Below, piece after piece: positions 1 through 28,855 of a DNA stretch of 28,855 nt. Made by a program: the position numbers and the translations under genes. The notes under the pieces are model-generated. The model saw only the letters and a list, made by a program, of their open reading frames with translations, ran no database searches and was not told the origin of the DNA. Position 1 is the first letter of the stretch. Every line of letters begins with the position of its first letter. The stretch is from Clostridia bacterium (lineage in GTDB: Bacteria > Bacillota > Clostridia > Christensenellales > Aristaeellaceae), in contig JAUNDF010000011.1 in NCBI GenBank assembly GCA_030526225.1, forward strand, positions 3,146-32,000, in the 5' to 3' direction.

Positions 1-2
1 CG

Positions 3-1526
3 GATGTATCCTTCCGGTACATTTCCCAGGGCAAAACGCTGTATCATTCTGCCGGAGACGGCAAGCTGGAATCGGCGGTATACAGCATCTACGGCAAGGA
101 AATGATTCGCTCCATGCGGCGCGTTCACGGCCATCTGAACGGTGTGCTGATGGACGGCTTTGTGGGCATCGGGGAAGGGGCACGGAGCAATCATGCGCAT
201 CAGTCCTTCTTTATCAACGGCCGATACATGAAGAGCAATCTGCTTTCCATATCGGTGGATGCCGCCTGCCGTGAGCGGGTGATGATTGGCAAATATCCGT
301 CCTGTGTCCTGCATCTGACCATGCCTTATGATGTGGTGGATGTCAATGTGCACCCGAATAAACTGTAGGTGCGCTTTCAGGATGAGCAGGGCATTGCCGA
401 GGCAGTGGAAACCATCGTCCGGGAAGCTCTGCAGGATCGGGATGCATTGGAGCGCCCAACCCAGATGGTACTCTGTAAGGAACCGGAAACAAAGCCTGTT
501 GCTGCAACAGTGACCAAACAGCCGGTGATTGCGGCTGCTTCTGTGAAACCGACTGTTCCAACGATTACTCCCACAGCGTCTGTCCCTGTTGCATCAAAGC
601 CGACAGAACAGCAGAATGCTGTTGCTCCTGCTGTAAAAATGACAGTGCAGCCAGCTGTGACAGTGACTGCAGCGAAAACGGCCATTCCTTCAGCTGCTGT
701 ACCTGAAACGGAACCGCTCAAGCCTGCGGCGGTTACGGATAATCCTGCTGCAGCAGCGAAACAGGAGACGGAAACCGAACAGGTTCGTCCCTTTGCACCC
801 ATTGCCTACGCATCATCTGTTGTGAAAAATACTTCCGATGCTGTAGCGCAGTATATGGCAAGCACGGTATTACCGGAAACAAGCGGCTGGGCCAAAAAAG
901 AAATGCCCGCCGTGCAGACGGAGCAGCTTTCTTCTCTGACAGAAGAGCAGAAAAAGCCCCTCCGGCTGATTGGCACAGTATTCAACACCTTCATTCTGGT
1001 GGAATATGAAGAGCATCTGCTGATGATTGACCAGCATGCCGTTCACGAGCGCTTGCTGTTTGACCGCTTCAGCAAGGAAATCGACCAGAATCAGGCCGGG
1101 CAGCAGCTGCTGATTCCCATCATTATGCAGGTCAGCAGAAGAGAGCAGCAGCTGTTGGAGGCCAACAAGGACATGCTGTCCAAGGTTGGGCTGAACATCG
1201 AACCCTTTGGCGAAAACGAGGTATCCGTGCGCAGCATCCCCATGATTCTCGGTCAGCCGCAAACTGAAGCCTTTGTGCGGGAAATGATAGACCAGCTTCA
1301 AAGTGAACGCGGCACCGTCACCATGGAAAAGCGCCGGGCGTCCATTCTTCAGCTTGCCTGCAAAAAGGCTGTCAAGGGCGGCGATCGTTTGACGGAGGAT
1401 GAAATCCGCGACCTTGTGACACGCATGATAGATGAAAAGGTCACACCCACCTGTCCTCACGGCAGACCTCTGGTGATTTCTCTCAGCCACAGTGAAATTG
1501 ACAAGCGCTTCCGGAGAATTCAATGA
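3..1526 (+). CDS. mutL: DNA mismatch repair protein MutL (5' end outside the window), interrupted by an in-frame TAG at 366-368
   Basis: Frame 3 is open from base 3. It reads ...VDVNVHPNKL-TAG-VRFQDEQ, the MutL HPxKxEVRF motif with TAG at the Glu position. A P/A/T/V-rich linker follows, then the C-terminal endonuclease motif DQHAVHERLLFDR and CPHGRP. The gene ends in TGA at 1524-1526. Confidence 0.9.
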
Positions 1527-2452
1527 TGGATAAAAAAACATGCTGGGTTCTTACGGGCCCCACCGCCAGCGGAAAGACTGCGCTGTCAGTCCGGATTGCC
1601 AAGGCATATGACTGCGAAATCATCTGTATGGATTCCATGCAGATTTATCGAAGCATGGACATCGGTACAGCCAAGGTTACGCCGGAGGAAATGGATGGTG
1701 TGCCGCACCATCTGGTGGACATCATTGAACCCGAAGATAATTTTACGGTGGCGGACTACTGCCGACTGGCAGAACAGACGGCAGAGGAAATCTTCAGCCG
1801 CGGAAAACGACCGCTGTTTGTGGGCGGCACTGGGTTTTATCTTCGGGCGCTTCGTCATCCCATGCCCATGGGTGAAGTGCCCGGCAACGATGAGCTCCGC
1901 GCACGGCTGGAAAAGCAGGCAGAGACAGAGGAAGGAAAGCTGCAGCTTTGGCATCAGCTGAACGAGACAGACCCTGTGACAGCACAAAAGCTGCATGTCA
2001 ACGATGTGCGCCGCGTGGTTCGTGCCCTTGAGGTCAATCTGCTGACAGGAAAATCGTTTTCCAATCAGGCCAATGAATCACCGGAGCCGAAGTATCATTA
2101 CCGGGTGGTCAACCTCAGCATGGACAGAGCTGTGCTTTACGACCGCATCAACCGCCGTGTTGACCAGATGATGGACATGGGCCTTGAACAAGAAGTGCGG
2201 ATGCTGCTTGAGCGGGGCCTGACGGTGCAGAATCAGGCCATGAAGGCCATCGGATACAAGGAAATGGCGGCATATCTCGGCGGAGAATATGATTTGGACA
2301 AGGCGGTGTACGAAATTAAAATGGGTACACGGCATTATGCCAAACGGCAGCTGACATGGATGCGCCGGGAAGAGGATGTGCTTTGGGTAGACCCCACCTG
2401 TTCCGATGCATTTGAGCAGACTGCCGCGTGGTTTCAAAAAGGAGAAGAATAA
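1523..2452 (+). CDS. miaA: tRNA dimethylallyltransferase MiaA
   Basis: P-loop GPTASGKT and DSMQIYRSMDIGTAK are typical of MiaA. The start overlaps the mutL stop (ATGA), a GGAG RBS is present, and the stop is TAA. Confidence 0.95.
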   Translation: MMDKKTCWVLTGPTASGKTALSVRIAKAYDCEIICMDSMQIYRSMDIGTAKVTPEEMDGVPHHLVDIIEPEDNFTVADYCRLAEQTAEEIFSRGKRPLFVGGTGFYLRALRHPMPMGEVPGNDELRARLEKQAETEEGKLQLWHQLNETDPVTAQKLHVNDVRRVVRALEVNLLTGKSFSNQANESPEPKYHYRVVNLSMDRAVLYDRINRRVDQMMDMGLEQEVRMLLERGLTVQNQAMKAIGYKEMAAYLGGEYDLDKAVYEIKMGTRHYAKRQLTWMRREEDVLWVDPTCSDAFEQTAAWFQKGEE

Positions 2453-3703
2453 ATGAATTCCAATGAAAGAATCGACCAGGCAGAGCAGGCGCTTCAGCCG
2501 GTATTCAAGCGGATTGAACAAATTGAGGAGATTGGTCTGCGCCGCGTGCTGGATGTATTCCAGAAGCATCAGGTGGCATATCGCCATTTTGCTCCCACCA
2601 CCGGCTATGGCTATGACGATGTGGGTCGTGACACGCTGGAAAAAATCTTTGCGGATTTGTTTGATACCGAGGCAGCCATTGTCCGCCCGCATATTGCCAG
2701 CGGTACCCACGCACTGGCGCTGGCACTGTTCGGCCTGACCCGCCCCGGTGAGCATATTCTGTCTGTAACCGGTAAGCCCTATGATACGCTGGAGGAAATC
2801 ATCGGCATTTCCGAGCATAACACGCCCGTGGGTTCCCTGAAGGAAATGCAGGTATCCTACAGCCAGACCGAGTTGAATGAGCAGGGTGAAATCGATTTGG
2901 ATGCCGTGCGCGCCGCCATCCGTGAAAACACCACGCTGGTCATTGCCCAGCGCAGCCGCGGTTATGCATGGCGTCCGTCCCTGATGCCCGAGCAGTTTGC
3001 ACCCTTGGCGGATATGCTCCACAAGGAATATCCCCACATCACCCTGATGGTTGATAACTGCTACGGTGAATTTGTCTGTGAGAAGGAACCCAGCCATTAT
3101 GGCGTGGATGTTTGCGTTGGCAGCCTGATTAAGAATCCCGGCGGCGGACTTGCGCCTACCGGCGGATATCTGGTGGGCAAAAAGGATGCCATCGAGCGCA
3201 TCGCCTACCGTTTGACTGCTCCCGGCATCGGTCTTGAGGTCGGCTCCTATGCAGCCAGCTATCAGCCCTTCTATCAGGGCTTGTTTATGGCTCCTCACAC
3301 GGTGGCACAGGCTGTGAAAACGGCTTGTCTGGCAGCAAAGGTGTTTGAGGATCTTGGCATGGTGACCACTCCTGCATCCACCGATGTGCGCGCTGACATT
3401 ATTCAGGCGATTCAGATGAAAACCCCTGAAAGACTTGTAGCCTTCTGTCAGGGCATTCAGATGGCATCTCCCGTGGACAGCATGGCACTGCCCGAGCCCT
3501 GGGATATGCCGGGCTATCAGGATCAGGTGGTCATGGCGGCCGGTACCTTTGTATCCGGTGCTTCCATCGAACTGAGTGCCGATGCCCCCATGCGTGAACC
3601 CTTTACCGCCTACATGCAGGGCGGCCTGACCTATTCCCACGGCCGTATTGCCATGGCCATGGCACTGGACCGCATGGTGGAGCAGGGAACACTCACCATT
3701 TAA
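2453..3703 (+). CDS. ynbB: Aluminium-resistance / methionine gamma-lyase-like PLP-dependent protein (YnbB family)
   Basis: 416 aa. N-terminal ...TTGYGYDDVGRDTLEKIFADLF...ASGTHAL resembles the YnbB/Met_gamma_lyase family. AGGAG RBS, TAA stop. Confidence 0.8.
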   Translation: MNSNERIDQAEQALQPVFKRIEQIEEIGLRRVLDVFQKHQVAYRHFAPTTGYGYDDVGRDTLEKIFADLFDTEAAIVRPHIASGTHALALALFGLTRPGEHILSVTGKPYDTLEEIIGISEHNTPVGSLKEMQVSYSQTELNEQGEIDLDAVRAAIRENTTLVIAQRSRGYAWRPSLMPEQFAPLADMLHKEYPHITLMVDNCYGEFVCEKEPSHYGVDVCVGSLIKNPGGGLAPTGGYLVGKKDAIERIAYRLTAPGIGLEVGSYAASYQPFYQGLFMAPHTVAQAVKTACLAAKVFEDLGMVTTPASTDVRADIIQAIQMKTPERLVAFCQGIQMASPVDSMALPEPWDMPGYQDQVVMAAGTFVSGASIELSADAPMREPFTAYMQGGLTYSHGRIAMAMALDRMVEQGTLTI

Positions 3704-3715
3704 TTTCATCAATGT

Positions 3716-3745
3716 AAGCAATGTCGAAACGGCATTGCTTTTTTT
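3716..3745 (+). terminator. Rho-independent terminator after the ynbB-like gene
   Basis: Stem AAGCAATG / CATTGCTT with a 9-nt loop, followed by a run of T. Confidence 0.7.
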
Positions 3746-3767
3746 ATGCACTGGATTTCTGCTGAAA

Positions 3768-3796
3768 TTGACTTACCATTTTTCTGTTTGTATAAT
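3768..3796 (+). promoter_or_regulatory. Sigma-70-type promoter for azlCD
   Basis: TTGACT, 17 nt spacer, TATAAT, about 40 nt upstream of the azlC ATG. Confidence 0.5.
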
Positions 3797-4896: not shown

Positions 4897-4907
4897 AGCT
4901 GCAAACA

Positions 4908-5032: not shown

Positions 5033-6007
5033 TTGAGTGATAAAAGAAAAATTTTGCTGGATATAGATTCCATGGATGCGTACAGAGCCCTTTTCGGGCT
5101 CAATGACAGAAACATCGCGCTGATTGAACAGGAATGCGGCGTGACTGTTTCACTGCGCGGAAATGAAATCTTTTTTTCTGGTGAAGCCGATGATATGGAC
5201 ATCGCCCAGGCTGTGATTGAAAAGCTTGTCCGCATGATTCAAAAGGGCGAGCAGGTGGACCGCAGCGGCATCCGGTACATGATTGCACTGGCCCGGGAAG
5301 ATAAGCTGGATGAAGCAGACGAAATCATGAAGTCCGTTGTTGCCATTACACACCGCGGAAAGCAGATTCGCTGCAAAACCTTTGGCCAACAGCAATATGT
5401 CAAATGCATCAAGGATCATGATTTGACCTTTGCCGTGGGTCCTGCCGGTACAGGCAAAACATATCTGGCCATGGCTCTGGCTGTTGTGGCACTGAAAAAT
5501 AAATAGGTGGAGCGTATTGTGCTGACCCGTCCCGCGGTGGAAGCCGGTGAAAAGCTGGGTTTCCTGCCCGGTGATCTGACTCAGAAGGTCGACCCGTATC
5601 TTCGCCCGCTGTATGATGCTTTGTTTGATTTTATGGGCGTTGATTCCTATCAGAAGCTGCTGGAGCGGGGGACAGTGGAGGTTGCGCCGCTGGCATACAT
5701 GCGCGGCCGGACACTTTCCGATTCGTTCATCATTCTGGACGAAGCACAGAACACCACCACCGAACAGATGAAAATGTTCCTGACCCGTATCGGCTTCCAT
5801 TCAAAGGTAGTCGTGACCGGTGACGTAACCCAGACCGACCTGCCCTTTGGCAAAAAATCCGGTCTTGTGGAAGCACTGGATGTTTTGAAGGATATTCCCG
5901 AAATCGGCATGGTGCATTTGACCGCCAATGACGTGGTCCGGCATGAACTGGTACAGCGGATTGTCCGCGCTTATGATCAGTATTATCATAAGGAGGGGGA
6001 AAAGTGA
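5033..6007 (+). CDS. phoH: PhoH-family ATPase, interrupted by an in-frame TAG at 5504-5506
   Basis: TTG start 9 nt after GGAGG. Walker A GPAGTGKT, then [32 protein letters not shown] in the same frame. The joined length of 324 aa is typical for PhoH. TGA stop. Confidence 0.9.
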
Positions 6008-8253
6008 AAGCCAAAAACGGAGTCCGCAGAAAGAATAACAGCTTTAAAAAGAAGCTGCGCCAGTGGGCGAATAGCGTAGATGCGAAATGTACGCTGATTG
6101 TTGTCATCTCCATGGTGATTATCGGCGCTCTGTTCTATGCGGTCAGTTCTCCTGAAAAATACGACCTGAAAATCGGTGCAATTTCCCATTACACCATTAC
6201 TGCCACCAAGGATGTTATTGACGAGGTGACCACCGAGGAAAGAAGGCAGGCGGCTGCCAACGCGGTGGAACCCACCTATCATCTGGAAGAGGGCGTAAAT
6301 GCATAGGTCATGCGCAGCCTTGCCGGTGTACTGAAGGAAATCGGCACCGTGCAGCAATACGGTCTGTCTCTTTTTGATGGCACGGAAACGCCCAAGGAGA
6401 AGCAGGCAAGGCAGTTTACTGCCGATGAACTGGCTTATGCGCGAAAGCTGACCACACAAATCAATCTGACGGATTACCAGCTGGCTACGGTCATGCGCAT
6501 GGAAAAAGCGCAGATTGAGGACATGACCTCTGTCTTGACCACCGTGGTTGAAAACTCACTGAACACCACCATCCGCGAGGGACAGGTTAACCAGTCCATT
6601 GATACCATGCTGCAGATTGCAGGCTACAAGATTGATACATCCCTGTTCCAAACGGTGGTTCCCACCATTCTGCGGACTTGCGTAAAGCCCAACATGGTCA
6701 TCGAAACGGAATCCACCGAACTGGCCAAAACAAAAGCACGGGAATCCGTGGAGCCTGTGATTTACCTGCAGGGCCAGAACATCATCAGGCAAGGCGAACG
6801 GGTCAGTGCAAATCAGATGCAGATGCTCCGCGCACTGGGCTTGATTGATGAAAACCAGATTGACTGGTGGCTCTACGTGGGTGCAATGGGCATGATTGTG
6901 GCCGCCATTGCCGTACTGTTGATTCTGCTGAGTGTATTTTCCTCTGAATCACTGCACGATATCCGGAAGATGGCAGTTATCATGATGGTGATTTGCATCA
7001 CCATGCTGCTCTGCTGCATCAGCATCCGGAGCATCAGCGTTTTCCTGGCACCTATTGCCATTTCCGCGCTGCTGATTACTGCGCTCATCGGTGTACCTGA
7101 AGGCATTGCCGGCGGTCTTTGCACTTCCATTCTGGCGGCAGCGTTTGTGCTGGGTGCACCTAATCCCTCTACCTCTGAGGTAACGCAGCTGCTGGTCATC
7201 GGCGTTGTGGATACCATGGCTGCAGCCCTGTTCCTGAAAACAAAGCCCTACCGTATCAAGGTTGTGCTTTGCGGACTCCTGATTTCCGTCATCGGCTTCT
7301 GTGCCATGCTCTGCGTGGGCATTATGACCAGCAGCAATTCCTCCAACGTGAAGGATAATGCGCTGATGTGCATTGAGTCCGGTATCCTCAGCGGCATTGT
7401 TGCGGTTGGTCTGCAGCCGATTCTGGAGGCGGTGTTTAATCTGGCAACGCCTGCCAAACTGATGGAACTGAGCAACCCCAATCACCCCTTGCTGCGCAGA
7501 CTTCTGCTGGAAGCCTCCGGCACCTATCATCATTCTATCATCGTGGCAAATCTGGCTGAGGCAGCGGCTGAGAAGATACATGCCAATCCGCTTCTGGCAA
7601 GAACCGGCGCGTATTTCCACGATGTGGGCAAAATGAAGCGCCCTCTATATTTCAAGGAAAATCAGATTGGCGATAACCCCCACGACAGAACAGACCCCTA
7701 CGTGTCCGCCGCCATTGTGACTTCTCACACGAAGGATGGTCTGAGCCTTGCGCTGAAGCATCGTCTGCCCAGAGAGATTCAGAAGATTATCGTGGAGCAT
7801 CATGGCAATACGCCGGTGATGTACTTCTACCACAAAGCAAGTCAGCTGGCCAACGGCAAGCCGGTGGATGTCAATGACTTCCGCTATGATGGACCTCGTC
7901 CCAGCTCTAAAGAAAGCGCCATTGTCATGCTGGCTGATACGGTGGAGGCGGCTGTGCGTTCCATGCCTGACCCCACGCCTCAGGCCATCGATGAAAAGAT
8001 ACGTAAGCTCGTTCAGGGCAAGGTGGATGACGGTCAGCTGAACGATGCACCGCTGACATTGCGCGACATTGACCGCATCTGTGTTGCCTTTGCTTCGGTG
8101 CTGAACGGTGCCTTCCATGAACGCATTGAATACCCGAATGTGGAGATTCCCAAGCAGCAGACTGTTTTGCCCGAAGAAGTCAGCATCGACCAGCTGACCG
8201 TAAAGCCCGGAAAAGAAAAGCAGGAGAGGACGGAGAAAAAGCATGAAGCTTGA
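6004..8253 (+). CDS. pgpH: 7TM-receptor HD-domain phosphohydrolase (PgpH/YqfF family), interrupted by an in-frame TAG at 6304-6306
   Basis: GTG start overlaps the phoH TGA. An N-terminal TM and extracellular region is followed by a multi-TM block and an HD domain ([14 protein letters not shown]...YFHDVGK...HHG). The two ORFs 6004-6306 and 6310-8253 share a frame. The joined length of 749 aa is typical. Confidence 0.85.
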
Positions 8254-9133
8254 CTGGTACTTTCATGTGGATGTGGACCCGTCTACCATCTCCCTGCTTC
8301 AAACTGCCGCTGATGCAGCGGTGCTGACAGAAGGCATAGCAAGGCCCTGCATGGTTTCGGTAACCATCTGCGATGATGAGGAGATTCAGGAAATCAACCG
8401 GGAATACAGGAATATCGACCGCGCCACCGATGTGCTGTCTTTCCCTTCTGTGAATTACCCCAAGGGCTTGACCGCAGGGCAGTGCGACAAGCAAATCAAA
8501 ATGGAATGGGATGCCGAAGCCGGTGCCTGTTTCCTTGGCGATTTGATTATTTCTCTGCCGCATGTAAAGGCACAGGCTGAGGAATACGGCCATTCCTTCC
8601 AGCGGGAGGCAGCGTATCTGCTGGTGCATGGTATGTGCCATTTGATGGGCTACGACCATATCGAAGAGGATGAAAGAAAGGTGATGCGTGCCATGGAGGA
8701 AAAGATTTTATCATCCATCGGGCAGACAAGAGATGACAATACTGTCACCGATGAACAGCTGCTTGCGCTTGCTCGTGAAGCCATGCAGCGCAGTTATTCG
8801 CCTTACTCGCACTATCCGGTGGGTGCGGCGCTTCTGTGCAATGATGGCCGTGTGTTTCAGGGCTGCAACATCGAAAACGCATCCTTTGGTCTGACAAACT
8901 GTGCCGAACGGACAGCTGTGTTCAAGGCTGTCAGCGAAGGCGCAACAGAATTCACCGCCATCGCCATTGCCTCAAAGGTATCTGCGCCGTGGCCCTGCGG
9001 TGCCTGCCGGCAGGTGCTGAATGAATTCGCCCCTCAAATTCGTGTGCTTGTTACCTGGGATGGCGGTCAGGGTGAAATGCTGCTCACCGATTTGCTGCCC
9101 CATGGTTTTGGTCCCAAAGACCTGCAATCATAA
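8243..9133 (+). CDS. ybeY: Fusion protein: rRNA maturation RNase YbeY (N-terminal) plus cytidine deaminase (C-terminal)
   Basis: YbeY zinc motif HGMCHLMGYDH is at about aa 130-140. Cdd motifs SPYSHYPVGAAL, NCAERTAV and PCGACRQ are in the C-terminal half. It is a single uninterrupted ORF with a TAA stop. Confidence 0.85.
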   Translation: MKLDWYFHVDVDPSTISLLQTAADAAVLTEGIARPCMVSVTICDDEEIQEINREYRNIDRATDVLSFPSVNYPKGLTAGQCDKQIKMEWDAEAGACFLGDLIISLPHVKAQAEEYGHSFQREAAYLLVHGMCHLMGYDHIEEDERKVMRAMEEKILSSIGQTRDDNTVTDEQLLALAREAMQRSYSPYSHYPVGAALLCNDGRVFQGCNIENASFGLTNCAERTAVFKAVSEGATEFTAIAIASKVSAPWPCGACRQVLNEFAPQIRVLVTWDGGQGEMLLTDLLPHGFGPKDLQS

Positions 9134-10094: not shown

Positions 10095-11255
10095 TTAATC
10101 CATGGTTTCCATCAATTCAACCAATAGCATATTTTGCAAATCCATGCCTTTGCGCGTAAGATGCCAACGCCCATCCTAACAGGCCATAAGCTGGCGCTGC
10201 TCCAAACTGAGCAATTGAGGATAGAAGCAGGTATCCTTCAGGGAAATCTGATGCATGGCAAAAAACTGCTCCTGCGATATCCCTTGATTGGTTCGCAGTC
10301 CAAGCATCAGCGTTTCAAACTGAGCATCCTTTCGGCTGATTGCTTCGCGGGGCAGCTGTGAAAAGCTTTTATTATCCACCATGCTGATATATCCGGCGAT
10401 ATCTGCCGGATTGGTCTGACGATAATACAGGTTCTGTTCATCAGAGCAATACAGCATGGAAGTGGACGAAGCGCCGATGCCAAGGTAGGGAATCTGCTGC
10501 CAATAGCCGAGGTTATGACGGCATTCGTAGCCTTCCAAAGCAAAATTGCTGATTTCGTATTGGTGGTAACCATTCTCCGAAAGCAGCTGCAGACAATGGT
10601 CATACATCAGCCGTTCCTCTTCATCCTCAGGCAGACGAAGCTTGCCGCAATCAAGGTCATTTTTCAGTGGCGTATTTTCTTCAGGGATTAAGCCGTAACA
10701 GCTTAAATGCGTGGGGGACAGGGCAATTGCCTTTTTTAATGTTTCGTCCCATTGTTCAAGGGTTTGTGTGGGCAGGCCAAACATCAAATCAAGATTGATG
10801 TTTCTGATTCCATGCCGTCTGATATCTGTTACTGCCTGCTGCACTTCATCAAAGGAATGAATCCTGCCGAGGATGCGTAAAAGCTCCGGCTGGGCGGCCT
10901 GCATACCAAGAGAGATTCGGTTGATGCCATTTTCAGCCGCAGCATCAAGCCAAGCATCCTTTAATGTACCGGGATTTGCCTCACTGGTGATTTCAGCATC
11001 TTCCGCAATGTGAAAGCATCTCTGCATATCCGTCAGCAGTTTTTTCAGCTGTGGCCCTGTCAACACGGAAGGGGTGCCGCCGCCAATGAATACAGAGGTG
11101 ACAGTCTCACCGGAAAAATGGTTGGAGTAATAGGCCATTTCCTTTTCCACAGCCTCAAGGTAACGATCTGCCATGGACAAAAAACCTGCGTAGGAAGGGA
11201 AATCGCAGTAGCGGCATTTCTGTTTACAAAACGGGATATGAATGTATAATTCCAT
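10095..11255 (-). CDS. hemW: Radical SAM heme chaperone HemW (HemN-like), with an in-frame TAG at 10176-10178
   Basis: CKQKCRYCDF radical-SAM motif near the N-terminus. Past the TAG the frame continues as DGRWHLTRKGMDLQNMLLVELMETMD to a TAA at 10095-10097. That tail matches the usual HemN_C end (...dG..v.LT.kG..l.N.v). The joined length is 386 aa. Confidence 0.85.
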
Positions 11256-11864: not shown

Positions 11865-11878
11865 GAAATAGCCTCGAA

Positions 11879-13702
<1,824 letters not shown>

Positions 13703-13717
13703 AAAAGGATGATTGAA

Positions 13718-16032: not shown

Positions 16033-16719
16033 TTATAAGATGACCGGTACCGTGTGGGTGATGGTCAATGTATCCGGTGTTGTGTGACATACGGCGCCAA
16101 TGATGTTTACGCCGCGGCTGTGGGCCAGACGAAGTGTATCGCCAAAGGCAGGGTGGGTGATATCATTGGGGGAAACGCTTATGATGTTGTCGCGCTGGAG
16201 GACGAAGCAAATGGCGGATTCATAGTCTGCTTCCTTCGCGGCAATCAGTTCGCGGATGTGTTTCACGCCTCGCTCTGTGGGCGCATCGGGGAAGAACGCT
16301 CTGTTTTCATCATCAAACAAGGTCACGCCCTTCACTTCTGCAAAACCGGCTTTGCCATCATGCTGCAGCGAAAAATCAAAGCGGGATTGTCCGAAGGTAA
16401 CCTCGCGCTTGAGCGTGTCGGGCACAAAACCAAGACCGCCCGCTGCAGCCCATTCCTCAAACACACGGTTGGGCGCCTGACTATCCATATTGACCACATA
16501 ACCCCGGGAAGAAACGCATACAAGGTCAAAGCGCGTCTTTCGTTTCGGGTCATTGCTTTCTTCAAGCCATACGGTGCAGCCGGGAATAAGCAGTTCGCGG
16601 CACCGACCGGTGTTTTTCACATGGCATACCACTTCTTCGCCGTTCAGCAAACAATGGGCAATAAAGCGATTGGAGCGGTAAAGAAATGCTGCTTCGTGAA
16701 TATGATGATACAGCTTCAT
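16033..16719 (-). CDS. sfsA: Sugar fermentation stimulation protein SfsA
   Basis: N-terminal FLYRSNRFIAHCLLNGEEVVCHVKNTGRCRELL is typical of SfsA. 228 aa, TAA stop. The start overlaps the VanW gene stop. Confidence 0.9.
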   Translation of the reverse strand: MKLYHHIHEAAFLYRSNRFIAHCLLNGEEVVCHVKNTGRCRELLIPGCTVWLEESNDPKRKTRFDLVCVSSRGYVVNMDSQAPNRVFEEWAAAGGLGFVPDTLKREVTFGQSRFDFSLQHDGKAGFAEVKGVTLFDDENRAFFPDAPTERGVKHIRELIAAKEADYESAICFVLQRDNIISVSPNDITHPAFGDTLRLAHSRGVNIIGAVCHTTPDTLTITHTVPVIL

Positions 16720-17999: not shown

Positions 18000-18027
18000 T
18001 TGAAAAAAACGGAAGCTGTGCTATAAT
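18000..18027 (+). promoter_or_regulatory. Sigma-70-type promoter for the aminopeptidase gene
   Basis: TTGAAA, 16 nt spacer, TGcTATAAT (extended -10). Confidence 0.5.
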
Positions 18028-18086
18028 ACCATCAGGCTCCGATAATCTGAATATTCATTCAACTTTGAAAGGAATTGAAGCAACCT

Positions 18087-19478
18087 ATGTACAGAGAAAA
18101 TGCATGGAAAAAATATGATGCGGAAGAGCTTGCAAAGCTCAATGCCTTTGCAGAAAAATACAAAGACTACATTTCCACGGCCAAGACAGAGCGTGAATGT
18201 GTTGACGAATCTGTCAAGCTGGCAGAAGCAGCCGGTTTCCGTAATCTTGATGACTGCATCAGAAGCGGTGAAGCCCTGAAGGCCGGTGAACGCGTGTATC
18301 GCAACTGGATGGGCAAGGACTTTATGCTGTTTATTGTCGGCGAAAAGGGCCTTGAAGCGGGCATGAACATTCTGGGTGCACACATCGACTCTCCCAGAAT
18401 CGATGTCAAGCAGAATCCTGTCTATGAGGAAGCCGATATGGCATACCTTGATACCCACTACTATGGCGGCATCAAGAAGTACCAGTGGGTTTCCATTCCT
18501 CTGGCCATTCATGGTGTTGTGGTCAAGAAGGACGGCACAAAGGTGCAAATCAATATCGGCGAAAAGGACGATGACCCTGTATTCTACATCAGCGACCTGC
18601 TCATTCATCTGGCACAGGAACAGATGGGCAAAACTGCCGCAAAGGTCATTGAGGGCGAGGAACTGAATCTGCTGGTTGGTTCCATTCCGCTGGCTGATGA
18701 AGAAAAGGAGCCAGTGAAAGCCAATCTGCTGAAGATTCTCAGCGAGGAGTACGGCCTTGAGGAGCAGGATTTTGTCTCTGCCGAGCTGGAAATCGTGCCT
18801 GCCGGCAAGGCGCGTGATTTGGGCTTTGACCGCAGCATGATCATGGGCTATGGCCACGATGACCGCGTTTGCGCATATCCCTCCATGGCCGCTGTTCTTG
18901 ATTATGAGGGTACCCCCGAATACACGCTTTGCGCGGTGCTGACAGACAAGGAAGAAATCGGCAGTGTAGGTGCTACCGGCATGCAGTCCCGCTATTTTGA
19001 AAACACCGTTGCGGAACTGATGGCGCTCACCGGCACCATGACCGAGCTTGCGCTGCGCCGGGCAATGCAGAACAGCAGAATGCTCTCCTCCGATGTCAGC
19101 GCCGGCTTTGACCCTGCCTTTGCGGGCGTATTTGAAAAGAAAAATGCCGCTATTCTGGGCAATGGTGTGTGTTTTAACAAGTTCACCGGCCGCGGCGGAA
19201 AGTCCGGCAGCAACGATGCCAATGCAGAGTTTGTCGGTCAGGTCCGTGCCATTATGGATGAAGCCGGTGTATCCTTCCAGACAGCTGAACTGGGCAAGGT
19301 GGATGTTGGCGGCGGCGGAACAATCGCCTATATCTGTGCAAACTACGGCATGAACGTGATTGATGCCGGCGTGCCTGTGCTGAGCATGCATGCGCCCTGC
19401 GAAGTCATCAGCAAGGCTGATTTGTGGGAAGAGTACAAGTGCTACTGCGCATTCCTGAAGGGTGCAAAGGCGCTGTAA
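18087..19478 (+). CDS. M18-family aminopeptidase
   Basis: MYRENAWKKY...KTERECV...LGAHIDSPR is typical of clostridial M18 aminopeptidases. The ATG at 18087 is preferred over the TTG at 18075 because of spacing from the GAAAGGA RBS. TAA stop. Confidence 0.85.
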   Translation: MYRENAWKKYDAEELAKLNAFAEKYKDYISTAKTERECVDESVKLAEAAGFRNLDDCIRSGEALKAGERVYRNWMGKDFMLFIVGEKGLEAGMNILGAHIDSPRIDVKQNPVYEEADMAYLDTHYYGGIKKYQWVSIPLAIHGVVVKKDGTKVQINIGEKDDDPVFYISDLLIHLAQEQMGKTAAKVIEGEELNLLVGSIPLADEEKEPVKANLLKILSEEYGLEEQDFVSAELEIVPAGKARDLGFDRSMIMGYGHDDRVCAYPSMAAVLDYEGTPEYTLCAVLTDKEEIGSVGATGMQSRYFENTVAELMALTGTMTELALRRAMQNSRMLSSDVSAGFDPAFAGVFEKKNAAILGNGVCFNKFTGRGGKSGSNDANAEFVGQVRAIMDEAGVSFQTAELGKVDVGGGGTIAYICANYGMNVIDAGVPVLSMHAPCEVISKADLWEEYKCYCAFLKGAKAL

Positions 19479-19485
19479 TATAACG

Positions 19486-19521
19486 AAAAAAGCAAGACTG
19501 CCGGATGCAGTCTTGCTTTTT
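19486..19521. terminator. Bidirectional rho-independent terminator
   Basis: Stem AAGCAAGACTG / CAGTCTTGCTT, flanked by an A-run upstream and a T-run downstream. It lies between convergent genes. Confidence 0.75.
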
Positions 19522-19528
19522 GATTGCA

Positions 19529-20419
19529 TTATTTCTGTTCGCTGACCTTGGGGACGTGATACTCCAGCTTTCCGTCGAACTTTACGGACTCCGGAGGCGT
19601 TTCCAGCAGCTCGGGATGATCCATGTATTTCACCATGGAGGCAAAGAAGCCTGCATAATGTGCGCCGGAGCAAACGCGTTCGTCAGCAGTGATGCCGATG
19701 GGGAGATAGCGCTTCATGCGGGTTGCACCGTTTTCAACCACAGCCACCTTTTCCAGCAGACCCATGCCGAAGAACAGACTGGTAGAACCGAAGTTGTAGA
19801 TGTGATGATTTACATGGTGCAGACCGATGGATGCATTGTTGGTGATGTACATGCTGGTGTGGAAGGGAATCTCATCCAACAGGGCACCGGGGACCAGACC
19901 ATAGCGGTCCAGCAAACGCACGATGCCCACAATGCAGGTGGGCAGACCGGGGATGGAGAACAGCAGGTTCAGCAGCTTGTCCAGAAAGTTCTGCGTTTCA
20001 ACGCCGCGGTTGTTCTGAATGGCCAGGTTGATGCGGTCGCGCACATCATAGATGGTATCGGTCAGGTCAAACTTGATTTTCGTAGCAGTTTCGCCGCTTT
20101 CAGCATCCTGCGGGTCCTTCAGCAGGGTAAAGGATACGGTGCAGTTGTTGCGGGCGTAGAACTGCTTGTTCATGATGAAACGGTTGATTTCGGGGTTTTC
20201 GCTGATGGAACGCACAAATGCGGCAATGATGATTTGCATGAAGGTGATTTTTTCACCCTTGGCGCTTTGCTGGGCAATGTAACGGGCCATCTTTTCGTAA
20301 TCGGCACGGTGCTGCAGGAATACCTGAGCATCGCAGCGCATGGGCATCAGGTAAGGGGTGATGCGGACGGTGGGGTCGATGTTGGAAATCCGACGACCGT
20401 CGGCTCTTCTGCCAAACAT
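19529..20419 (-). CDS. Stand-alone 2-oxoacid dehydrogenase E2-like acyltransferase catalytic-domain protein
   Basis: 296 aa with no lipoyl or subunit-binding domain. The C-terminal ITADERVCSGAHYAGF aligns with the E2 DHRxxDGA motif. GGAGGAAA RBS, TAA stop. Confidence 0.7.
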   Translation of the reverse strand: MFGRRADGRRISNIDPTVRITPYLMPMRCDAQVFLQHRADYEKMARYIAQQSAKGEKITFMQIIIAAFVRSISENPEINRFIMNKQFYARNNCTVSFTLLKDPQDAESGETATKIKFDLTDTIYDVRDRINLAIQNNRGVETQNFLDKLLNLLFSIPGLPTCIVGIVRLLDRYGLVPGALLDEIPFHTSMYITNNASIGLHHVNHHIYNFGSTSLFFGMGLLEKVAVVENGATRMKRYLPIGITADERVCSGAHYAGFFASMVKYMDHPELLETPPESVKFDGKLEYHVPKVSEQK

Positions 20420-20521: not shown

Positions 20522-21085
20522 TTACGCGATGATTTCGGGGTGTTCGCCCTCATCCTTTTCCTGTGCTGGATTTTCGGGCATGGGCGGGAGCTCGTCCAAA
20601 TCGGAAATGCCGAAATGGCTCAGGAATTCGTCGGTGGTTCCATACAGAATCGGGCGGCCCAGGGTATCCTTACGGCCAACCTCTGCAATCAGATTCTTGT
20701 TAACCAATGCCTGTACAGAGTAGTCGCACTTTACACCGCGGATTTGCTCGATTTCGGCCTTGGTCACCGGCTGCTTGTAGGCAATCACCGCCAGCGTTTC
20801 CATGATGGTTTGGGACAGGGATTGCTTTTGTACGGGCTGCAGCATATGCACCACATCCTCGGCATACAGGGCGCGGGTGGTCAGCTGCACATGCTTGCCG
20901 AACTGCTTGATGGCAAAGCCACGCTGATTGTAATCATAATCGCTTTTTAAGGCTTCAATCGCCTTGTTCAGCTCGCCTATGGTGCAGCCGATGGCCTTTG
21001 CCAGGTCATCCAGCCGAACGGCTTCTCCGGCAACAAACAGAATCGCCTCAATCTTGCCCTCAATGGTGCCGTTTTCGTTATTCAT
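20522..21085 (-). CDS. scpB: Segregation and condensation protein B
   Basis: IEAILFVAGEAV...LSQTIMETLAVIAYKQPVTKAEIEQIRGV...GRPILYGTT is typical of ScpB. It overlaps the scpA end by 8 nt. TAA stop. Confidence 0.95.
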   Translation of the reverse strand: MNNENGTIEGKIEAILFVAGEAVRLDDLAKAIGCTIGELNKAIEALKSDYDYNQRGFAIKQFGKHVQLTTRALYAEDVVHMLQPVQKQSLSQTIMETLAVIAYKQPVTKAEIEQIRGVKCDYSVQALVNKNLIAEVGRKDTLGRPILYGTTDEFLSHFGISDLDELPPMPENPAQEKDEGEHPEIIA

Positions 21086-21845
21086 AATCGGTCAGATCTC
21101 CTTCAATGGTTGCCTCTGCCTGACCCGGCAGAAGGATGATATCGCCATAGGTTTCAGACTGGTCGATGTGCATTTGTCCCAGCTTCAGCAGCTCCAGCAT
21201 GGCAAGGAAAAGTGTGACAACTTCTTCCTTGGTGGGTGCTTCGCTGAAGGTTTCGGTAAATGACAGGCGCTCGTTTGTTTTCAGCTTCTTCAGCAGATGC
21301 AGCATGCAATCCTCCACCGTGTGTGAATCGCGATGGATATCACGGGGCGCGTAGTGGTTGACCTGCAGTTCTTCGTCTGCATCGGGCTTGCGCATCCAGA
21401 TGCGCAGGAAGGCCTATGTCAGCCCTTCCATGGTCAGGCCCACCAGCTCAACCTCCTGCGGCGGCAGGGGATACTCTGCCGGCAGCTTGGAGAATGCTTC
21501 CTTGGCGGCAGCTTCAAAATTCTGCATGGCAGAGGCCGTTTCGCGAAAACGCTTGTATTCCTCCAAACGGCGAATCAATGCCTGCTCGGGGTCCTCTTCA
21601 TCCTCAATGACGGGCGGTCTGGGCAGCATGGCGCGGCTCTTGATTTCAAGCAGGGTAGCAGCCATGACCAGAAAATCGGTGGCATCCTCCATGTTCAGGT
21701 CAGATGCGTTCTTTACAGATTCAATGTACTGATCTGTGATTTCGCTGATGAAAATATCCTTGATGTCGATCTTCGCCTTGCCAATCAGGTGCAGAAGCAA
21801 ATCAAGGGGGCCGTCAAAGTCTTTTAACTGGAAGGTCATCGGCAT
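21078..21845 (-). CDS. scpA: Segregation and condensation protein A, interrupted by an in-frame TAG at 21414-21416
   Basis: N-terminal FDGPLDLLLHLIGKAKIDIKDI is typical of ScpA. ORFs 21414-21845 and 21078-21395 share a frame. The junction reads LTMEGLT-TAG-AFLRIWMRKPD. The joined length of 255 aa is typical. TAA stop. Confidence 0.9.
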
Positions 21846-23576: not shown

Positions 23577-23602
23577 GATCGGGTTGCTGCCCGGTCTTTT
23601 TT
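23577..23602 (+). terminator. Rho-independent terminator after the methyltransferase gene
   Basis: Stem GATCGGG / CCCGGTC (one G-U pair), 6-nt loop, TTTTTT. Confidence 0.6.
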
Positions 23603-25001
23603 ATTGCAATGCCTGATAGAGGATATCAAACAGCTGGGGCAGTGCGTTTTCATCAACAGATGAATAGTCTATCACAAATTGACCGTTCGGCGCTTCAGCG
23701 GGATTTGCATAATAGGATGAAAGGGGGATGATTTTGATTTTTGCCTTTTCTGCACGCTGTACAACCTAAGCGTCGGTCAGGCGGGTGTTGAGCCGGAGAA
23801 TAAAATGGAAACCGGCATCCTTCTCTTCAATAGATGAAATGCTTTTTAGGGAAGAGGCGTTGAACAGATTGAGGATTCGTTCCCGTCTGGAACGGTATTG
23901 CTTTCTGACACGATGAATATGCCGGTCAAAATGTCCGCGCTTGATAAACATGGCCAGCGTGTATTGCTCCAGATTGGAAACGCTGCAGCTGTAGAAAGAC
24001 AGCTTCTTTCTGTAAGCCTCCATGAGTGATTCGGGAAGCACCATATAGCTGATGCGGATGGTGGAGGACAGCGTTTTGGAAAAGGTGTTCATATAAATAA
24101 CGCGATTGCTCTGGTCAATGCTTTTCAACGCTGGGATGGGGCGGCCGGTCAATCGCAGCTCGCTGTCGTAATCATCCTCGATGATGAACCGGTTGTTTGC
24201 CTGACTGGCCCACTGAAGAAGGGCAAGTCTGCGGCTGTACGGTGTAACAAGCCCGGTGGGGAAGTGATGGGCAGGGGAAATGTGGACAACAGCCGCTTCA
24301 GAGCTGGCTAATTGACTGATGCTGATGCCCTGCTCATCCAGATTGATTGGAATACACTTTGCCCGGTGACTTTCATAGACCTTCCTGATTTTTGAATAAC
24401 CAGGGTTTTCCACGGCGTACAGCAAGTCATTGCCCAAAAGCTGTACCAGAATGCTGTACAGATAATCTGTACCGGCACCGACGATAATCTGCTCGGGAGA
24501 AGCGTGGATGCCGCGGTATGATTCAAGGTGCTCGGCAATGGCCTGCCGAAGTTCAAAGATGCCTTGTCCGGGTGAAACGGAAAGAAGCTCCTTCTGGCAG
24601 GTGGACAGAACTTCCCGCGTAAGCTTTGACCACAGCGAAAAGGGAAAAACGCTGGCACTGATTTTGTTGCTGGTCAAGTCTGCAAGATAAGTTGTTTCAA
24701 CAGTGGCAGTCTCAGAGACAGCGGCAGTGGAGGGAATTCCGGCTGTGCCATGTTCGCAGGAAATGTCGGCAACAAAATAGCCTTTCTTCTCAATGGCATA
24801 TATATATCCTTCCGACAGCAGCTGGGCATACGCGTTGGCGATTGTAATCACGCTGACACTGTTAGCCTCTGCCATGGCACGCTTGGAGGGCAGCTTTTCC
24901 GAGGCCTTCAGCTTGCCGGAAAGAATATCCTGCCTGATGCAAAGATAGATGTATTCAAACAGCGGCTTTGAACCGCGCAGCTCCATGTTGTAGGTAAGCA
25001 T
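23601..25001 (-). CDS. MocR/PdxR-family regulator (GntR HTH fused to an aminotransferase-like domain), with an in-frame TAG at 23766-23768
   Basis: ATG at 25001 lies 8 nt after GAGG. The HTH region reads LPSKRAMAEANSVSVITIANAY, and the aminotransferase fold carries FSKTL. After the TAG the frame continues as VVQRAEKAKIKIIPLSSYYANPAEAPNGQFVIDYSSVDENALPQLFDILYQALQ to a TAA at 23601. That is a typical C-terminus for this family. The joined length is 466 aa. Confidence 0.85.
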
Positions 25002-25073: not shown

Positions 25074-25077
25074 TTCG

Positions 25078-25151
25078 TGGCTCCGATTGGACTCGAACCA
25101 ATGACACTCCGGGTATGAACCGAATGCTCTAGCCAACTGAGCTACGGAGCC
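25078..25151 (-). tRNA. tRNA-Met (CAT), elongator type, CCA not encoded
   Basis: The reverse complement GGCTCCGTAGCTCAGTTGGCTAGAGCATTCGGTTCATACCCGGAGTGTCATTGGTTCGAGTCCAATCGGAGCCA folds as a cloverleaf with anticodon loop TTCATAC. A lysidine-modified tRNA-Ile2 cannot be fully excluded from sequence alone. Confidence 0.8.
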
Positions 25152-25161
25152 ATATTTGATT

Positions 25162-25193
25162 AAAAAAGAAAGAACTCTTTGAAAAGAGTTCTT
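25162..25193 (-). terminator. Terminator-like hairpin between the two tRNA-Met copies
   Basis: On the minus strand: AAGAACTCTT, 4-nt loop, AAGAGTTCTT, then TCTTTTTT. Confidence 0.6.
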
Positions 25194-25197
25194 AAAG

Positions 25198-25271
25198 TGG
25201 CTCCGATTGGACTCGAACCAATGACACTCCGGGTATGAACCGAATGCTCTAGCCAACTGAGCTACGGAGCC
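25198..25271 (-). tRNA. tRNA-Met (CAT), second identical copy
   Basis: The 74 nt are identical to 25078-25151. Confidence 0.8.
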
Positions 25272-25277
25272 ACAAAA

Positions 25278-25353
<76 letters not shown>

Positions 25354-25390
25354 ATATCTTGTCGACCTTGTTTGTCAGGCGACATCAATA

Positions 25391-25419: not shown

Positions 25420-25602
25420 CACCTAAATTAAAACTTTTTTATAAAATTCTGTAACTTTTATTCAAAAACAGGCTGTTTAGATGTTTGTGATTGACAAATA
25501 CATTGAAAATGCACGGTTTTGCTTGCTTTTTGCCTGTTCTGTATGATAGTATAATTTCGTTCTTTTCAAAAAAGGTTAAGAAAACGTGATGGTGAGCAAT
25601 AC

Positions 25603-26382: not shown

Positions 26383-26403
26383 AGAATAACGGAGGAAAAT
26401 CAA

Positions 26404-27156
26404 TTGGAAACGCAGTACTTTAAATTTTGGAGTCATAATCTGGGCCGCGACATGGAAATGAAGGTATACGGTCATGCCGGCCGTCCCGTGCTGTTCATTC
26501 CCTGCCAGGATGGACATTTCTACGATTTCGAAAACTTCAAGATGGCCGATGTATGGTCTCCCTGGATTGATGCCGGTCAGGTAATGGTGTTTGCCATTGA
26601 TACCATCGACACCGAAACCTGGAGCAACAAGGGCGGCGATGCCGGATGGCGTGCATGGCGCCATGAGCAGTGGATGCGCTACATTGCCGACGAGGTCGCT
26701 CCCTTCATCCAGCGCTACACCAATGAAAAGAATGGCTGGGATGGCGTTCCGGGCATCATCAGCTTCGGCTGCAGCCTTGGCGCTACCCATGCGGCCAATC
26801 TGTTCTTCCGCTATCCCGATACCTTCCGCGGTATGCTGGCACTCAGCGGCATCTATACCGCATCCTACGGCTTCGATGGCTATATGGATCAGAATGTTTA
26901 CAACAACTCTCTGGTAGACTATCTGGCCAACATGAGCTACGGTCATCCCTACATTGAAAAGTACAACACCGGCAAGGGCATCATCTGCGTTGGTCAGGGT
27001 CCCTGGGAAATGCCTGAAAGCACCCGCCGTGTTGCTGAAATCTGCGGTGACAAGGGCATCAATGTGTGGGTTGATTTCTGGGGCAGTGATTGTGCACATG
27101 ACTGGGATTGGTGGTACAAGCAGGTAAAGTACTACGTTCCCAAGCTGCTGGGCTGA
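26404..27156 (+). CDS. Second esterase-family alpha/beta hydrolase
   Basis: TTG start 8 nt after GGAGG. RPVLFIPCQDG and the nucleophile elbow GCSLGA. 250 aa, TGA stop. Confidence 0.7.
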   Translation: METQYFKFWSHNLGRDMEMKVYGHAGRPVLFIPCQDGHFYDFENFKMADVWSPWIDAGQVMVFAIDTIDTETWSNKGGDAGWRAWRHEQWMRYIADEVAPFIQRYTNEKNGWDGVPGIISFGCSLGATHAANLFFRYPDTFRGMLALSGIYTASYGFDGYMDQNVYNNSLVDYLANMSYGHPYIEKYNTGKGIICVGQGPWEMPESTRRVAEICGDKGINVWVDFWGSDCAHDWDWWYKQVKYYVPKLLG

Positions 27157-27197
27157 GATTCACCACTTAAAATCAAAAAGAAAGGAAAGAATAGAAT

Positions 27198-28391
27198 ATG
27201 AAGAATTTTGTTTTCATTTCTCCGAATTTCCCCACCAACTACTGGCAGTTCTGCCGTGAACTGAAGAAGAACGGCCTGCGCGTGCTGGGCGTTGGCGATC
27301 AGCCCTATCATGAGCTGCTGCCTGAACTGCGTGAAAGCCTGACCGAGTACTACAAGGTCGGCAGCATGGAAAACTACGATGAAGTTTACCGTGCAGTCGC
27401 TTTCTTCATCAGCAAGTACGGCCGTATCGATTGGCTGGAGAGCAACAACGAATACTGGCTGGAACGCGACGCCATGCTGCGTACTGACTTCCACATCACC
27501 TCTGGCTTCCAGGTGGAGGATATGCCCCGTATCAAGTACAAGAGCAAGATGAAGGAATACTACCAGAAGGTCGGCATTCCCACTGCCCGTTACTACATCG
27601 TGGAAGATTGGCAGGGCGCTGTCGATTTCATCGGCAAGGTTGGCTATCCTGTTATCGTCAAGCCTGATAACGGCGTAGGCGCTTCTCATACCTACAAGAT
27701 TAACAACGAAGATGACCTGAAGTGGTTCTTTGGCGAGAAGGAAGCCAATGTCAGCTACATCATGGAAGAGTTCATCCATGCCGAGGTCAACTCCTATGAT
27801 GCCGTCATCGATTCCAACGGCGAGCCCGTGTTTGAAACCGGCAATGTGACCCCCGGCTCCATCATGGACGTTGTAAACACCAACGACAACTCCATCTATT
27901 ACATCGTCAAGGATCTGGCTGAGGATACCCGCAAGGCCGGTCGTGCCACGGTGAAGAGCTTCGGCGTAAAGAGCCGCTTTGTGCACTTCGAGTTCTTCCG
28001 CCTCACGCAGGATCAGGAAGGCATGGGCAAGAAGGGCGATGTGGTTGCGCTGGAAGTCAACATGCGTCCCTGCGGCGGTTTCTCTCCTGACATGATGAAC
28101 TACGCCAATTCCACTGACGTGTACAAGATTTGGGCAGACATGATTGCCTTCGACCGCTCTACCAAGGAAAGCGGCAAGCATATGTTCTGCGCCTTCTGCG
28201 GCAGAAGAGACGGCAAGGACTTTGTGCTGTCTGATGAAGAACTGGTTAACAAGTATGCTTCCAAAATGAAGATGGTTCAGCGCATCCCCGATGCACTGTC
28301 CGGCGCCATGGGCAACAGAATGTTTGTGGCTGTCTTTGATACCGAAGACGAAATGAACGCATTCTACAAGGAAGCCGTCCTGTGCAAATAA
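27198..28391 (+). CDS. ATP-grasp domain protein of unknown substrate
   Basis: 397 aa. The pre-ATP-grasp N-terminus is followed by the ATP-grasp core (KSKMKEYYQKVGIPTARY...GYPVIVKPDNGVGASHTYKI...IMEEFI...ALEVNMRPCGG). AAAGGAAAG RBS, TAA stop. Confidence 0.75.
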   Translation: MKNFVFISPNFPTNYWQFCRELKKNGLRVLGVGDQPYHELLPELRESLTEYYKVGSMENYDEVYRAVAFFISKYGRIDWLESNNEYWLERDAMLRTDFHITSGFQVEDMPRIKYKSKMKEYYQKVGIPTARYYIVEDWQGAVDFIGKVGYPVIVKPDNGVGASHTYKINNEDDLKWFFGEKEANVSYIMEEFIHAEVNSYDAVIDSNGEPVFETGNVTPGSIMDVVNTNDNSIYYIVKDLAEDTRKAGRATVKSFGVKSRFVHFEFFRLTQDQEGMGKKGDVVALEVNMRPCGGFSPDMMNYANSTDVYKIWADMIAFDRSTKESGKHMFCAFCGRRDGKDFVLSDEELVNKYASKMKMVQRIPDALSGAMGNRMFVAVFDTEDEMNAFYKEAVLCK

Positions 28392-28410
28392 GGAATATTT
28401 TCGTTTGATG

Positions 28411-28453
28411 AAACAGGCTGTGGTGCCGTATGGTGCCGCAGCCTGTTTTGTTG
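28411..28453 (+). terminator. Long hairpin terminator after the ATP-grasp gene
   Basis: AAACAGGCTGTGGTGCC pairs with GGTGCCGCAGCCTGTTT, with several G-U pairs, followed by TTTTGTTG. Confidence 0.55.
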
Positions 28454-28524
28454 CCTTGACACCACCCATCGGTCATGATATGATAATAATCAATAGTAAT
28501 GCAGGAAAGAAGGAAAAGGATTCA

Positions 28525-28855
28525 ATGAGAAAGATGATCCGGCGTATTTATCGCCACCGTACCACAATCATCATCTCATTAATCAGAATGATTCTCTATA
28601 TCGGGCTGGCACTCGTTTTTTTCGGACTGATGTCCATTGAAAACTGGCCGCTCCGGCATGCGTCCCGTACGCTGGGTACTACACTGTTTACCTATGTGAT
28701 GCTCTCCGGTGTGATGCATTCAGTATACGGCGGCTTTGCCATCGGTAAAAAGAAGAACAAGCCTGTTATTTCATCCATGGCCATGAGCACGCTTGTTACG
28801 GATTTGGCCACCTATCTGCAGCTTCAGATTATGAACGTTAACACCAACAACAACG
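28525..28855 (+). CDS. Hypothetical membrane protein (3' end outside the window)
   Basis: The ATG follows AAGGAAAAGGA. The frame stays open to the window end. A basic N-terminus is followed by predicted TM helices (IIISLIRMILYIGLALVFFGLM...). No family is assigned. Confidence 0.5.
   Translation, partial: MRKMIRRIYRHRTTIIISLIRMILYIGLALVFFGLMSIENWPLRHASRTLGTTLFTYVMLSGVMHSVYGGFAIGKKKNKPVISSMAMSTLVTDLATYLQLQIMNVNTNNN

Follow-up and report, generated by a model that had tools for sequence, protein, structure and literature searches.

The accepted reassignments of stop codons in bacteria all concern UGA (PMC8629427; bioRxiv 10.64898/2026.05.24.727570). This codon is translated as tryptophan under table 4 in the Mycoplasmatales, in insect endosymbionts and in some Eggerthellaceae, and as glycine under table 25 in the Gracilibacteria and Absconditabacteria, and the expected signature of such a reassignment is the loss of the cognate release factor together with a tRNA carrying the matching anticodon (PMC13462651, PMC8629427). 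The code changes described for prokaryotes comprise UGA to tryptophan or glycine, a few reassignments of arginine codons and the genome-wide use of UAG for pyrrolysine (Pyl) in some archaea. As a sense codon UAG is known from phages, where it specifies glutamine (Gln), from Pyl-using archaea and bacteria, from eukaryotes and from organelles (PMC8629427; bioRxiv 10.64898/2026.05.24.727570), and the archaeal 'Pyl code' is hard to detect in that coding density under translation table 11 barely shifts (bioRxiv 10.64898/2026.05.24.727570). In the literature consulted we found no description of UAG being assigned to a standard amino acid on a bacterial chromosome. Here we analyze a 28,855-bp stretch (contig JAUNDF010000011.1, hereafter the window) of the metagenome-assembled genome (MAG) of an uncultured gut-type Clostridia bacterium, an ordinary bacterial chromosome block of ~52% G+C that carries housekeeping genes syntenic with those of relatives and is without phage character, and in which six conserved genes each contain an in-frame TAG. 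Sequence comparison makes it very probable that UAG is a sense codon in this organism, most likely for glutamate (Glu), and we assign a probability of about 0.7 to the broader reading of a UAG-to-glutamate code across the chromosome, the first natural one in a bacterial lineage, which would have arisen by codon capture and would operate with release factor 2 (RF2) alone and a CUA suppressor derived from tRNA-Glu.

In-frame TAG codons and the residue aligned with them

One in-frame TAG, with a long open frame on both sides, is found in each of mutL, phoH, pgpH, hemW, scpA and the gene for a MocR-type regulator (Table 1), and among the 8,986 codons that make up the 27 genes in the window there are these six TAGs but neither TAA nor TGA in frame. 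Together the sites extend over 23.4 kb of the 29 kb seen, in housekeeping genes with synteny to relatives, and the genes that carry them are free of frameshifts. At 0.67 per 1000 codons, UAG would account for ~1% of Glu codons, next to 24 per 1000 for GAG and 42 per 1000 for GAA. Every TAG is crossed by a single continuous Pfam domain match: DNA_mis_repair in MutL (residues 27-143, unbroken over the TAG), PhoH in PhoH (111-315), 7TMR-HDED in PgpH (56-282), SMC_ScpA in ScpA (20-236), Aminotran_1_2 in the MocR protein (136-431) and HemN_C in HemW (306-373), the last of which is complete only with read-through. Conservation 3' of the TAGs equals or exceeds that of the 5' part, as evidenced by identities to a relative of 88.6% after the TAG vs 72.0% before it in PhoH, and of 54.8% over the 648 amino acids (aa) after the TAG vs 42.4% before it in PgpH. 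In the two genes where the TAG stands close to the downstream TAA, the homologues also continue past it. All 135 HemW homologues run 12-36 residues beyond the TAG column, and their tails include an LTxxGxxxxN motif that is encoded in the window 3' of the TAG; the read-through product of the MocR gene is 466 aa long against a homologue median of 467 aa, and 115 of 120 homologue C-termini lie between -1 and +5 alignment columns from the point where the read-through product ends.

To assign a residue to the codon we compared each TAG column with homologous proteins. At each of the six sites Glu is more frequent among the homologues than any other residue, and the summed log-odds relative to background amount to +11.0 nats for Glu, with every other residue at or below -1.0 (Ala -1.0, Gln -1.6, Asp -1.6). 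In MutL the column corresponds to the Glu of the HPxKxEVRF motif in the three sequences examined, borne by the best-scoring PDB chain 9n2k (motif HPSKLEVR) and by E. coli MutL structures. The PhoH column holds Glu in all five of the 81%-identical relatives that were read, out of 120 listed, and in 23 of 61 diverse bacteria, where Gln is second with 11 of 61. Glu occupies the ScpA column in 106 of 120 relatives (70-79% identity). The remaining three columns show Glu as the leading residue among several: 41 Glu, 20 Asp and 13 Gln in MocR (n = 120 homologues), 27 Glu, 23 Asp and 20 Thr in HemW (n = 135 homologues) and 7 of 20 Glu in PgpH. At both sites where the orthologous codon was checked (phoH in relative locus L081 and scpA in L169) it is GAG, from which TAG is reached by one transversion.

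We also considered that UAG might encode another amino acid, either Gln, its meaning in phage code 15 and in the majority of eukaryotic reassignments of UAR (UAA and UAG) codons, or Pyl, as in the archaeal 'Pyl code', these being the meanings that a sense UAG is known to have naturally in phages and prokaryotes (PMC9523058; bioRxiv 10.1101/2024.09.30.615893). Gln has some presence in the diverse PhoH column, where it is the runner-up, and column statistics cannot score a non-standard residue such as Pyl. However, essentially only Glu occurs in the columns of MutL, ScpA and close-relative PhoH, and the relatives carry GAG, which is a single step away from TAG. For Gln the summed log-odds are negative where those of Glu are strongly positive, and code 15 was rejected on this ground and on the bacterial chromosomal, non-viral character of the genes. 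For Pyl, a bulky lysine-derived residue would be implausible at conserved Glu positions of three proteins, the conserved MutL and ScpA columns argue indirectly against its insertion, and neither pylTSBCD nor methylamine methyltransferase genes occur within the window. Taken over these points, a Gln or Pyl meaning appears most improbable.

Stop usage, competing explanations and a putative mechanism

The gene map was assembled from stop-to-stop open reading frames (ORFs), Pfam matches and NCBI protein names, and contains 27 coding-sequence ends within the window, 20 with TAA, seven with TGA and none with TAG. This tally holds only with the six in-frame TAGs read through, as table 11 ends several genes at TAG. 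A first-pass annotation of this DNA had proposed that no gene terminates with TAG, which the 27 credible ends bear out, and its seven TGA genes (mutL, phoH, pgpH, lepA, the VanW gene, the second esterase and the upstream half of a split secreted-protein gene) are exactly those we recover. Its total of 29 ends was too high by our count, in that a scan of all intergenic gaps yielded no further credible small gene, the sole stray TAG-ending ORF being one of 33 aa (28364-28465, minus strand); the conclusion is unaffected.

What the absence of TAG terminators implies depends on the baseline, which we took from the loci of five standard-code relatives (L081, L169, L170, L173 and L174). Among their called genes TAG accounts for two of 88 stops (2.3%, 95% confidence interval 0.3-8.0%). 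At this rate the probability of finding none among 27 is 0.54, and Fisher's test of the window vs the relatives gives p = 1.0; at a generic bacterial TAG usage of 10-20%, the same observation would give p = 0.06-0.002. Because the standard-code relatives use TAG in only ~2% of stops, 0/27 cannot discriminate between a standard and an altered code. The first-pass annotation had argued from stop usage that UAG termination was lost or weakened, in a state preceding or accompanying amber capture. The argument from stop absence fails on the relatives' equally low usage, while the inference that UAG is non-terminating stands on other evidence and goes further, with six sense TAGs in conserved genes indicating that amber capture has already taken place. 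Thus, it is the in-frame TAGs that lead to UAG as a sense codon, and the stop census alone says little about release factor 1 (RF1). The stop usage of the relatives suggests that the whole clade had nearly given up UAG before reassignment in this lineage. Their TAG share is unusually low for loci of 53-64% G+C.

With this baseline in hand, we asked how the six TAGs would be explained under the standard code, in which case a clade that rarely uses TAG would have acquired six nonsense mutations, in pseudogenes of, for example, a mutL-deficient mutator, or the TAGs would be consensus or assembly errors. The relatives' stops leave 0/27 in need of no special cause, mutL itself carries a TAG, and the sequence is that of a MAG that NCBI annotates under table 11. 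This explanation nevertheless requires that six of 27 genes, scpA and mutL included, are broken, all by TAG and none by TAA, TGA or a frameshift; in a model of random single-base nonsense mutations, the probability that all six are TAG is 0.014. Every TAG moreover lies in a Glu-topped column with GAG as the relatives' codon at the two checked sites, an origin that the same model gives a probability of 0.15 per site, and the parts 3' of the TAGs are as conserved as the 5' parts. Loss of mismatch repair typically gives transitions, whereas GAG to TAG is a transversion. With regard to error, two contigs of a separate assembly of run SRR24915835 match the window exactly over two stretches, and the scpA TAG is reproduced in one contig of this Logan assembly (L168) with 0 mismatches over 2.6 kb. 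A motif-specific base-calling error converting GAGG to TAGG is unlikely for the same reason and on the count of 168 GAGG vs 66 TAGG sites in the window, which excludes wholesale conversion. We therefore give an intact standard code very little credence. The effect of reading these genes with table 11 is visible in existing annotation: gene calls on the Logan contig split scpA into 143 + 105 aa, the NCBI MocR protein halts at the TAG with 411 aa, and NCBI probably treats scpA, phoH and pgpH as fragments or pseudogenes, judging by accession numbering.

Programmed local read-through was examined as a further possibility and rejected. No recoding element resembling those for selenocysteine (SECIS) or pyrrolysine (PYLIS) insertion was found 3' of the TAGs, where folding z-scores range from -1.75 to +0.49 and no significant structure or motif is present; the sole feature common to these regions is a single G directly after the TAG. 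G is the next base after each of the six sense TAGs (TAGG) and C precedes none of them, compared with a G in the +4 position at 29% of the 229 TAG trinucleotides in the window and at 44% of GAG codons (p ~0.0006 to 0.007), whereas 23 of the 27 true stops have T or A in this position and the two TAG stops of the relatives have C. The TAGG context may be a signal of decoding context or of mutational context and, at six sites, is only a lead. It would be expected if decoding were ambiguous or partial, with RF1 kept, UAG still terminating in some contexts and a suppressor tRNA giving Glu at, for example, UAG-G, an intermediate stage that would also suit the very low frequency of TAG as a sense codon. 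We regard this, the main rival explanation, as unlikely, given that TAG terminates none of the genes in the window, that conserved housekeeping genes, scpA and mutL among them, would suffer from inefficient read-through, that nothing beyond the single G marks the 3' regions and that the sample is six sites. TAG trinucleotides overall are sparse in the window: counted over both strands they reach ~1/4 of compositional expectation, CTAG is nearly missing (a count of six, or three palindromic sites) and TTAG is scarce too, with T preceding 14 of the 229 TAG trinucleotides.

Reassignment of UAG to Glu thus remains the reading that we favor, and it admits a simple putative mechanism. RF1 reads UAA and UAG, and RF2 reads UAA and UGA (PMC13462651). 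With every terminator in the window being UAA or UGA, RF2 alone could terminate each gene and RF1 would be dispensable; its gene, prfA, would be lost or disabled, and a dedicated tRNA with a CUA anticodon on a tRNA-Glu body would decode UAG. Such an anticodon could derive from CUC by one base change at position 36, or from UUC, the usual tRNA-Glu anticodon in this phylum, by two. A glutamyl-tRNA synthetase (GluRS) tolerant of the change at position 36 could charge this tRNA(CUA), and non-discriminating GluRS, which is common in Bacillota, plausibly would do so. The route would be codon capture: with UAG nearly unused as an ancestral stop there would have been few terminators to replace, after which GAG-to-TAG changes would be neutral. 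This route fits because the standard-code relatives already use TAG in only ~2% of their stops.

For this lineage no closely related organism has been sequenced. The nearest relatives share ~81% protein identity in PhoH and Era, 85% in LepA and 78-79% in ScpA, and at least some of them are human-gut organisms; all eight window proteins that were found in a collection of ~15 billion proteins are singleton clusters at 90% identity. No genuine in-frame TAG was found in the relatives' loci examined, and on present data the reassignment is specific to this lineage. Apparent in-frame 'X' residues were dismissed in two loci, lying upstream of the true start in L093 and representing runs of N in L114. 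A scan of the relatives for long ORFs broken only by TAG is non-discriminating at 53-64% G+C, and the matches inspected all proved to be shadow frames or 5' open stretches. Searching the genome collection with PgpH returned only distant homologues (≤37% identity, the universal YFHDVGKM motif alone matching), and searching metagenomes with LepA gave a nearest match of 85% identity and revealed no relative with synteny or recoding. Separately, the top-scoring PhoH match, P0001 (an ENA contig of 27,912 bp), encodes a 496-aa protein in which the C-terminal two-thirds of PhoH is tandem-duplicated, which probably arose as an artefact of assembly in a metagenome unrelated to this one.

Several considerations weigh against a chromosome-wide UAG-to-Glu code. 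'Genome-wide' is an extrapolation from six sites in 29 kb of one MAG, and the collection contains no other genome within 90% protein identity that could serve as a sister for a cross-check of the code change. Decoding as Glu is predicted from homologue comparison and rests mainly on mutL, phoH and scpA, the pgpH, hemW and MocR columns being variable. Given the 2% baseline of the clade, the lack of TAG terminators adds almost nothing statistically. The G after all six TAGs could mean context-dependent, incomplete decoding and not a clean reassignment. Finally, the components of the mechanism are absent from the window, both a tRNA with a CUA anticodon (by ARAGORN and Rfam) and prfA and prfB, results that apply to the window only.

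Gene content of the window

The proteins that NCBI lists for the source MAG (MDO4483392 to MDO4483416) were annotated under table 11, and the features on our own map are collected in Table 1. The sole RNA genes are three tandem tRNA genes with the anticodon CAT, one of which is initiator-like (C1 end, three G-C pairs in the anticodon stem) while the remaining two are identical copies for elongator Met or Ile2. The ybeY and cytidine deaminase genes are joined in a single ORF of 296 aa, a fusion that is kept in the 81%-identity relatives (301 aa in L081-L086). A secreted-protein gene without Pfam match (13718-15075, minus strand) is divided over two overlapping frames, with the upstream half running to its TGA at 14419 and the downstream frame open from 14482; the frameshift lies within ~64 nt, near a CCTTTCC run, is unconnected with TAG and may reflect pseudogene status, an error in sequencing or programmed shifting. 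As annotated, the CHAP/peptidoglycan-binding gene begins at 16090 and shares 58 nt with the 3' end of sfsA (16033-16090); its true start is probably further downstream. Antisense ORFs of 445-672 codons stand opposite lepA, the Met-gamma-lyase-family gene, the M18 aminopeptidase gene and the ATP-grasp gene. These were rejected as genes, some of them 'ending' in TAG, and are shadow frames that result from rare TTA, CTA and TCA codons; TAG-ending shadow ORFs of this kind could mislead gene callers.

Table 1. Features of the window, with stop positions given as the lowest coordinate of each stop codon.
Feature	Span	Stop position	Strand	Stop codon or source	In-frame TAG
mutL	3-1526 (partial ORF)	1524	+	TGA	366..368; codon 122 of partial ORF; motif HPNKL-TAG-VRF
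miaA		2450	+	TAA	
Met-gamma-lyase-family gene		3701	+	TAA	
azlC		4578	+	TAA	
azlD		4894	+	TAA	
phoH	5033-6007	6005	+	TGA	5504..5506; codon 158
pgpH	6004-8253	8251	+	TGA	6304..6306; codon 101
ybeY-cdd fusion	8243-9133	9131	+	TAA	
era		10045	+	TAA	
hemW	10095-11255	10095	-	TAA	10176..10178; codon 360; 26 codons ahead of TAA stop
YpsA-like gene		11268	-	TAA	
lepA		11879	-	TGA	
Secreted protein, downstream half		13718	-	TAA	
Secreted protein, upstream half		14419	-	TGA	
CHAP/peptidoglycan-binding (PG-binding) gene		15107	-	TAA	
sfsA		16033	-	TAA	
VanW gene		16719	-	TGA	
M18 aminopeptidase		19476	+	TAA	
Acyltransferase-like gene		19529	-	TAA	
scpB		20522	-	TAA	
scpA	21078-21845	21078	-	TAA	21414..21416; codon 144; context GLT-TAG-AFLRIW
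Site-2 protease		21849	-	TAA	
SpoU methylase		23566	+	TAA	
MocR-type (MocR/GntR-aminotransferase) regulator	23601-25001	23601	-	TAA	23766..23768; codon 412; 54 codons ahead of TAA stop
Three tandem tRNA genes, anticodon CAT	25077-25353		-	ARAGORN, Rfam, sequence	
Esterase-1		26380	+	TAA	
Esterase-2		27154	+	TGA	
ATP-grasp gene		28389	+	TAA	
Long antisense ORF	11867-13882		+		
Long antisense ORFs	2078-3772; 18021-19682; 27132-28472		-		

Comparison with known recoded systems

In practical terms, pipelines that apply table 11 cut short or split roughly a fifth of the genes in the window without any warning (MocR, scpA, phoH, pgpH, hemW and mutL), and coding-density heuristics will miss genomes of this kind. 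If the proposed code is true, it would constitute a new code table for bacteria, in a Clostridia bacterium of free-living type, and would provide a test of codon capture against relatives with TAG at ~2% of stops.

Among described systems, the table 4 and table 25 bacteria functionally mirror the lineage proposed here in that a stop codon is made sense chromosome-wide and the remaining two stops fit one kept release factor. They differ in that the reassigned codon is UGA and not UAG, the dispensable factor RF2 and not RF1, and the amino acid other than Glu; UGA recoding also usually accompanies low G+C, whereas the window is at 52%. Phage code 15, found in crAss-like, Lak and other gut phages, shares with our proposal the reading of TAG through a suppressor tRNA and a gut association (10.1101/2021.08.26.457843, PMC9523058), but it is viral, often confined to late genes, operates in hosts with the standard code and inserts Gln, whereas the TAGs described here lie in chromosomal housekeeping genes at Glu columns. 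A host that itself reads UAG as Glu would raise questions about its interplay with TAG-recoding phages. The archaeal 'Pyl code' is also prokaryotic and removes UAG from the stops of the whole genome (bioRxiv 10.1101/2024.09.30.615893, Kivenson et al.), yet it needs both pyrrolysyl-tRNA synthetase (PylRS) and tRNA-Pyl and adds a 22nd amino acid, unlike the standard amino acid inferred here for a bacterium.

The proposed amino acid is shared with eukaryotic codes, the UAR-to-Glu codes of peritrich ciliates (table 30) and Blastocrithidia (table 31), where UAG specifies Glu via a suppressor derived from tRNA-Glu (PMC12153298, PMC11687900). Those codes are nuclear, function with a single eukaryotic release factor (eRF1) and usually reassign UAA as well, whereas UAA is the main terminator in the window. 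A further parallel is engineered E. coli that is free of RF1 or from which all TAG stops have been removed, showing that life with RF2 alone is sustained once UAG terminators are few or gone and UAG is thereby freed (PMC4434889, PMC11903333). That state is synthetic, whereas the Clostridia lineage would have reached it naturally, from relatives whose TAG stops were already at ~2%, and would, if the reading holds, be the natural counterpart of the RF1-free E. coli strains.

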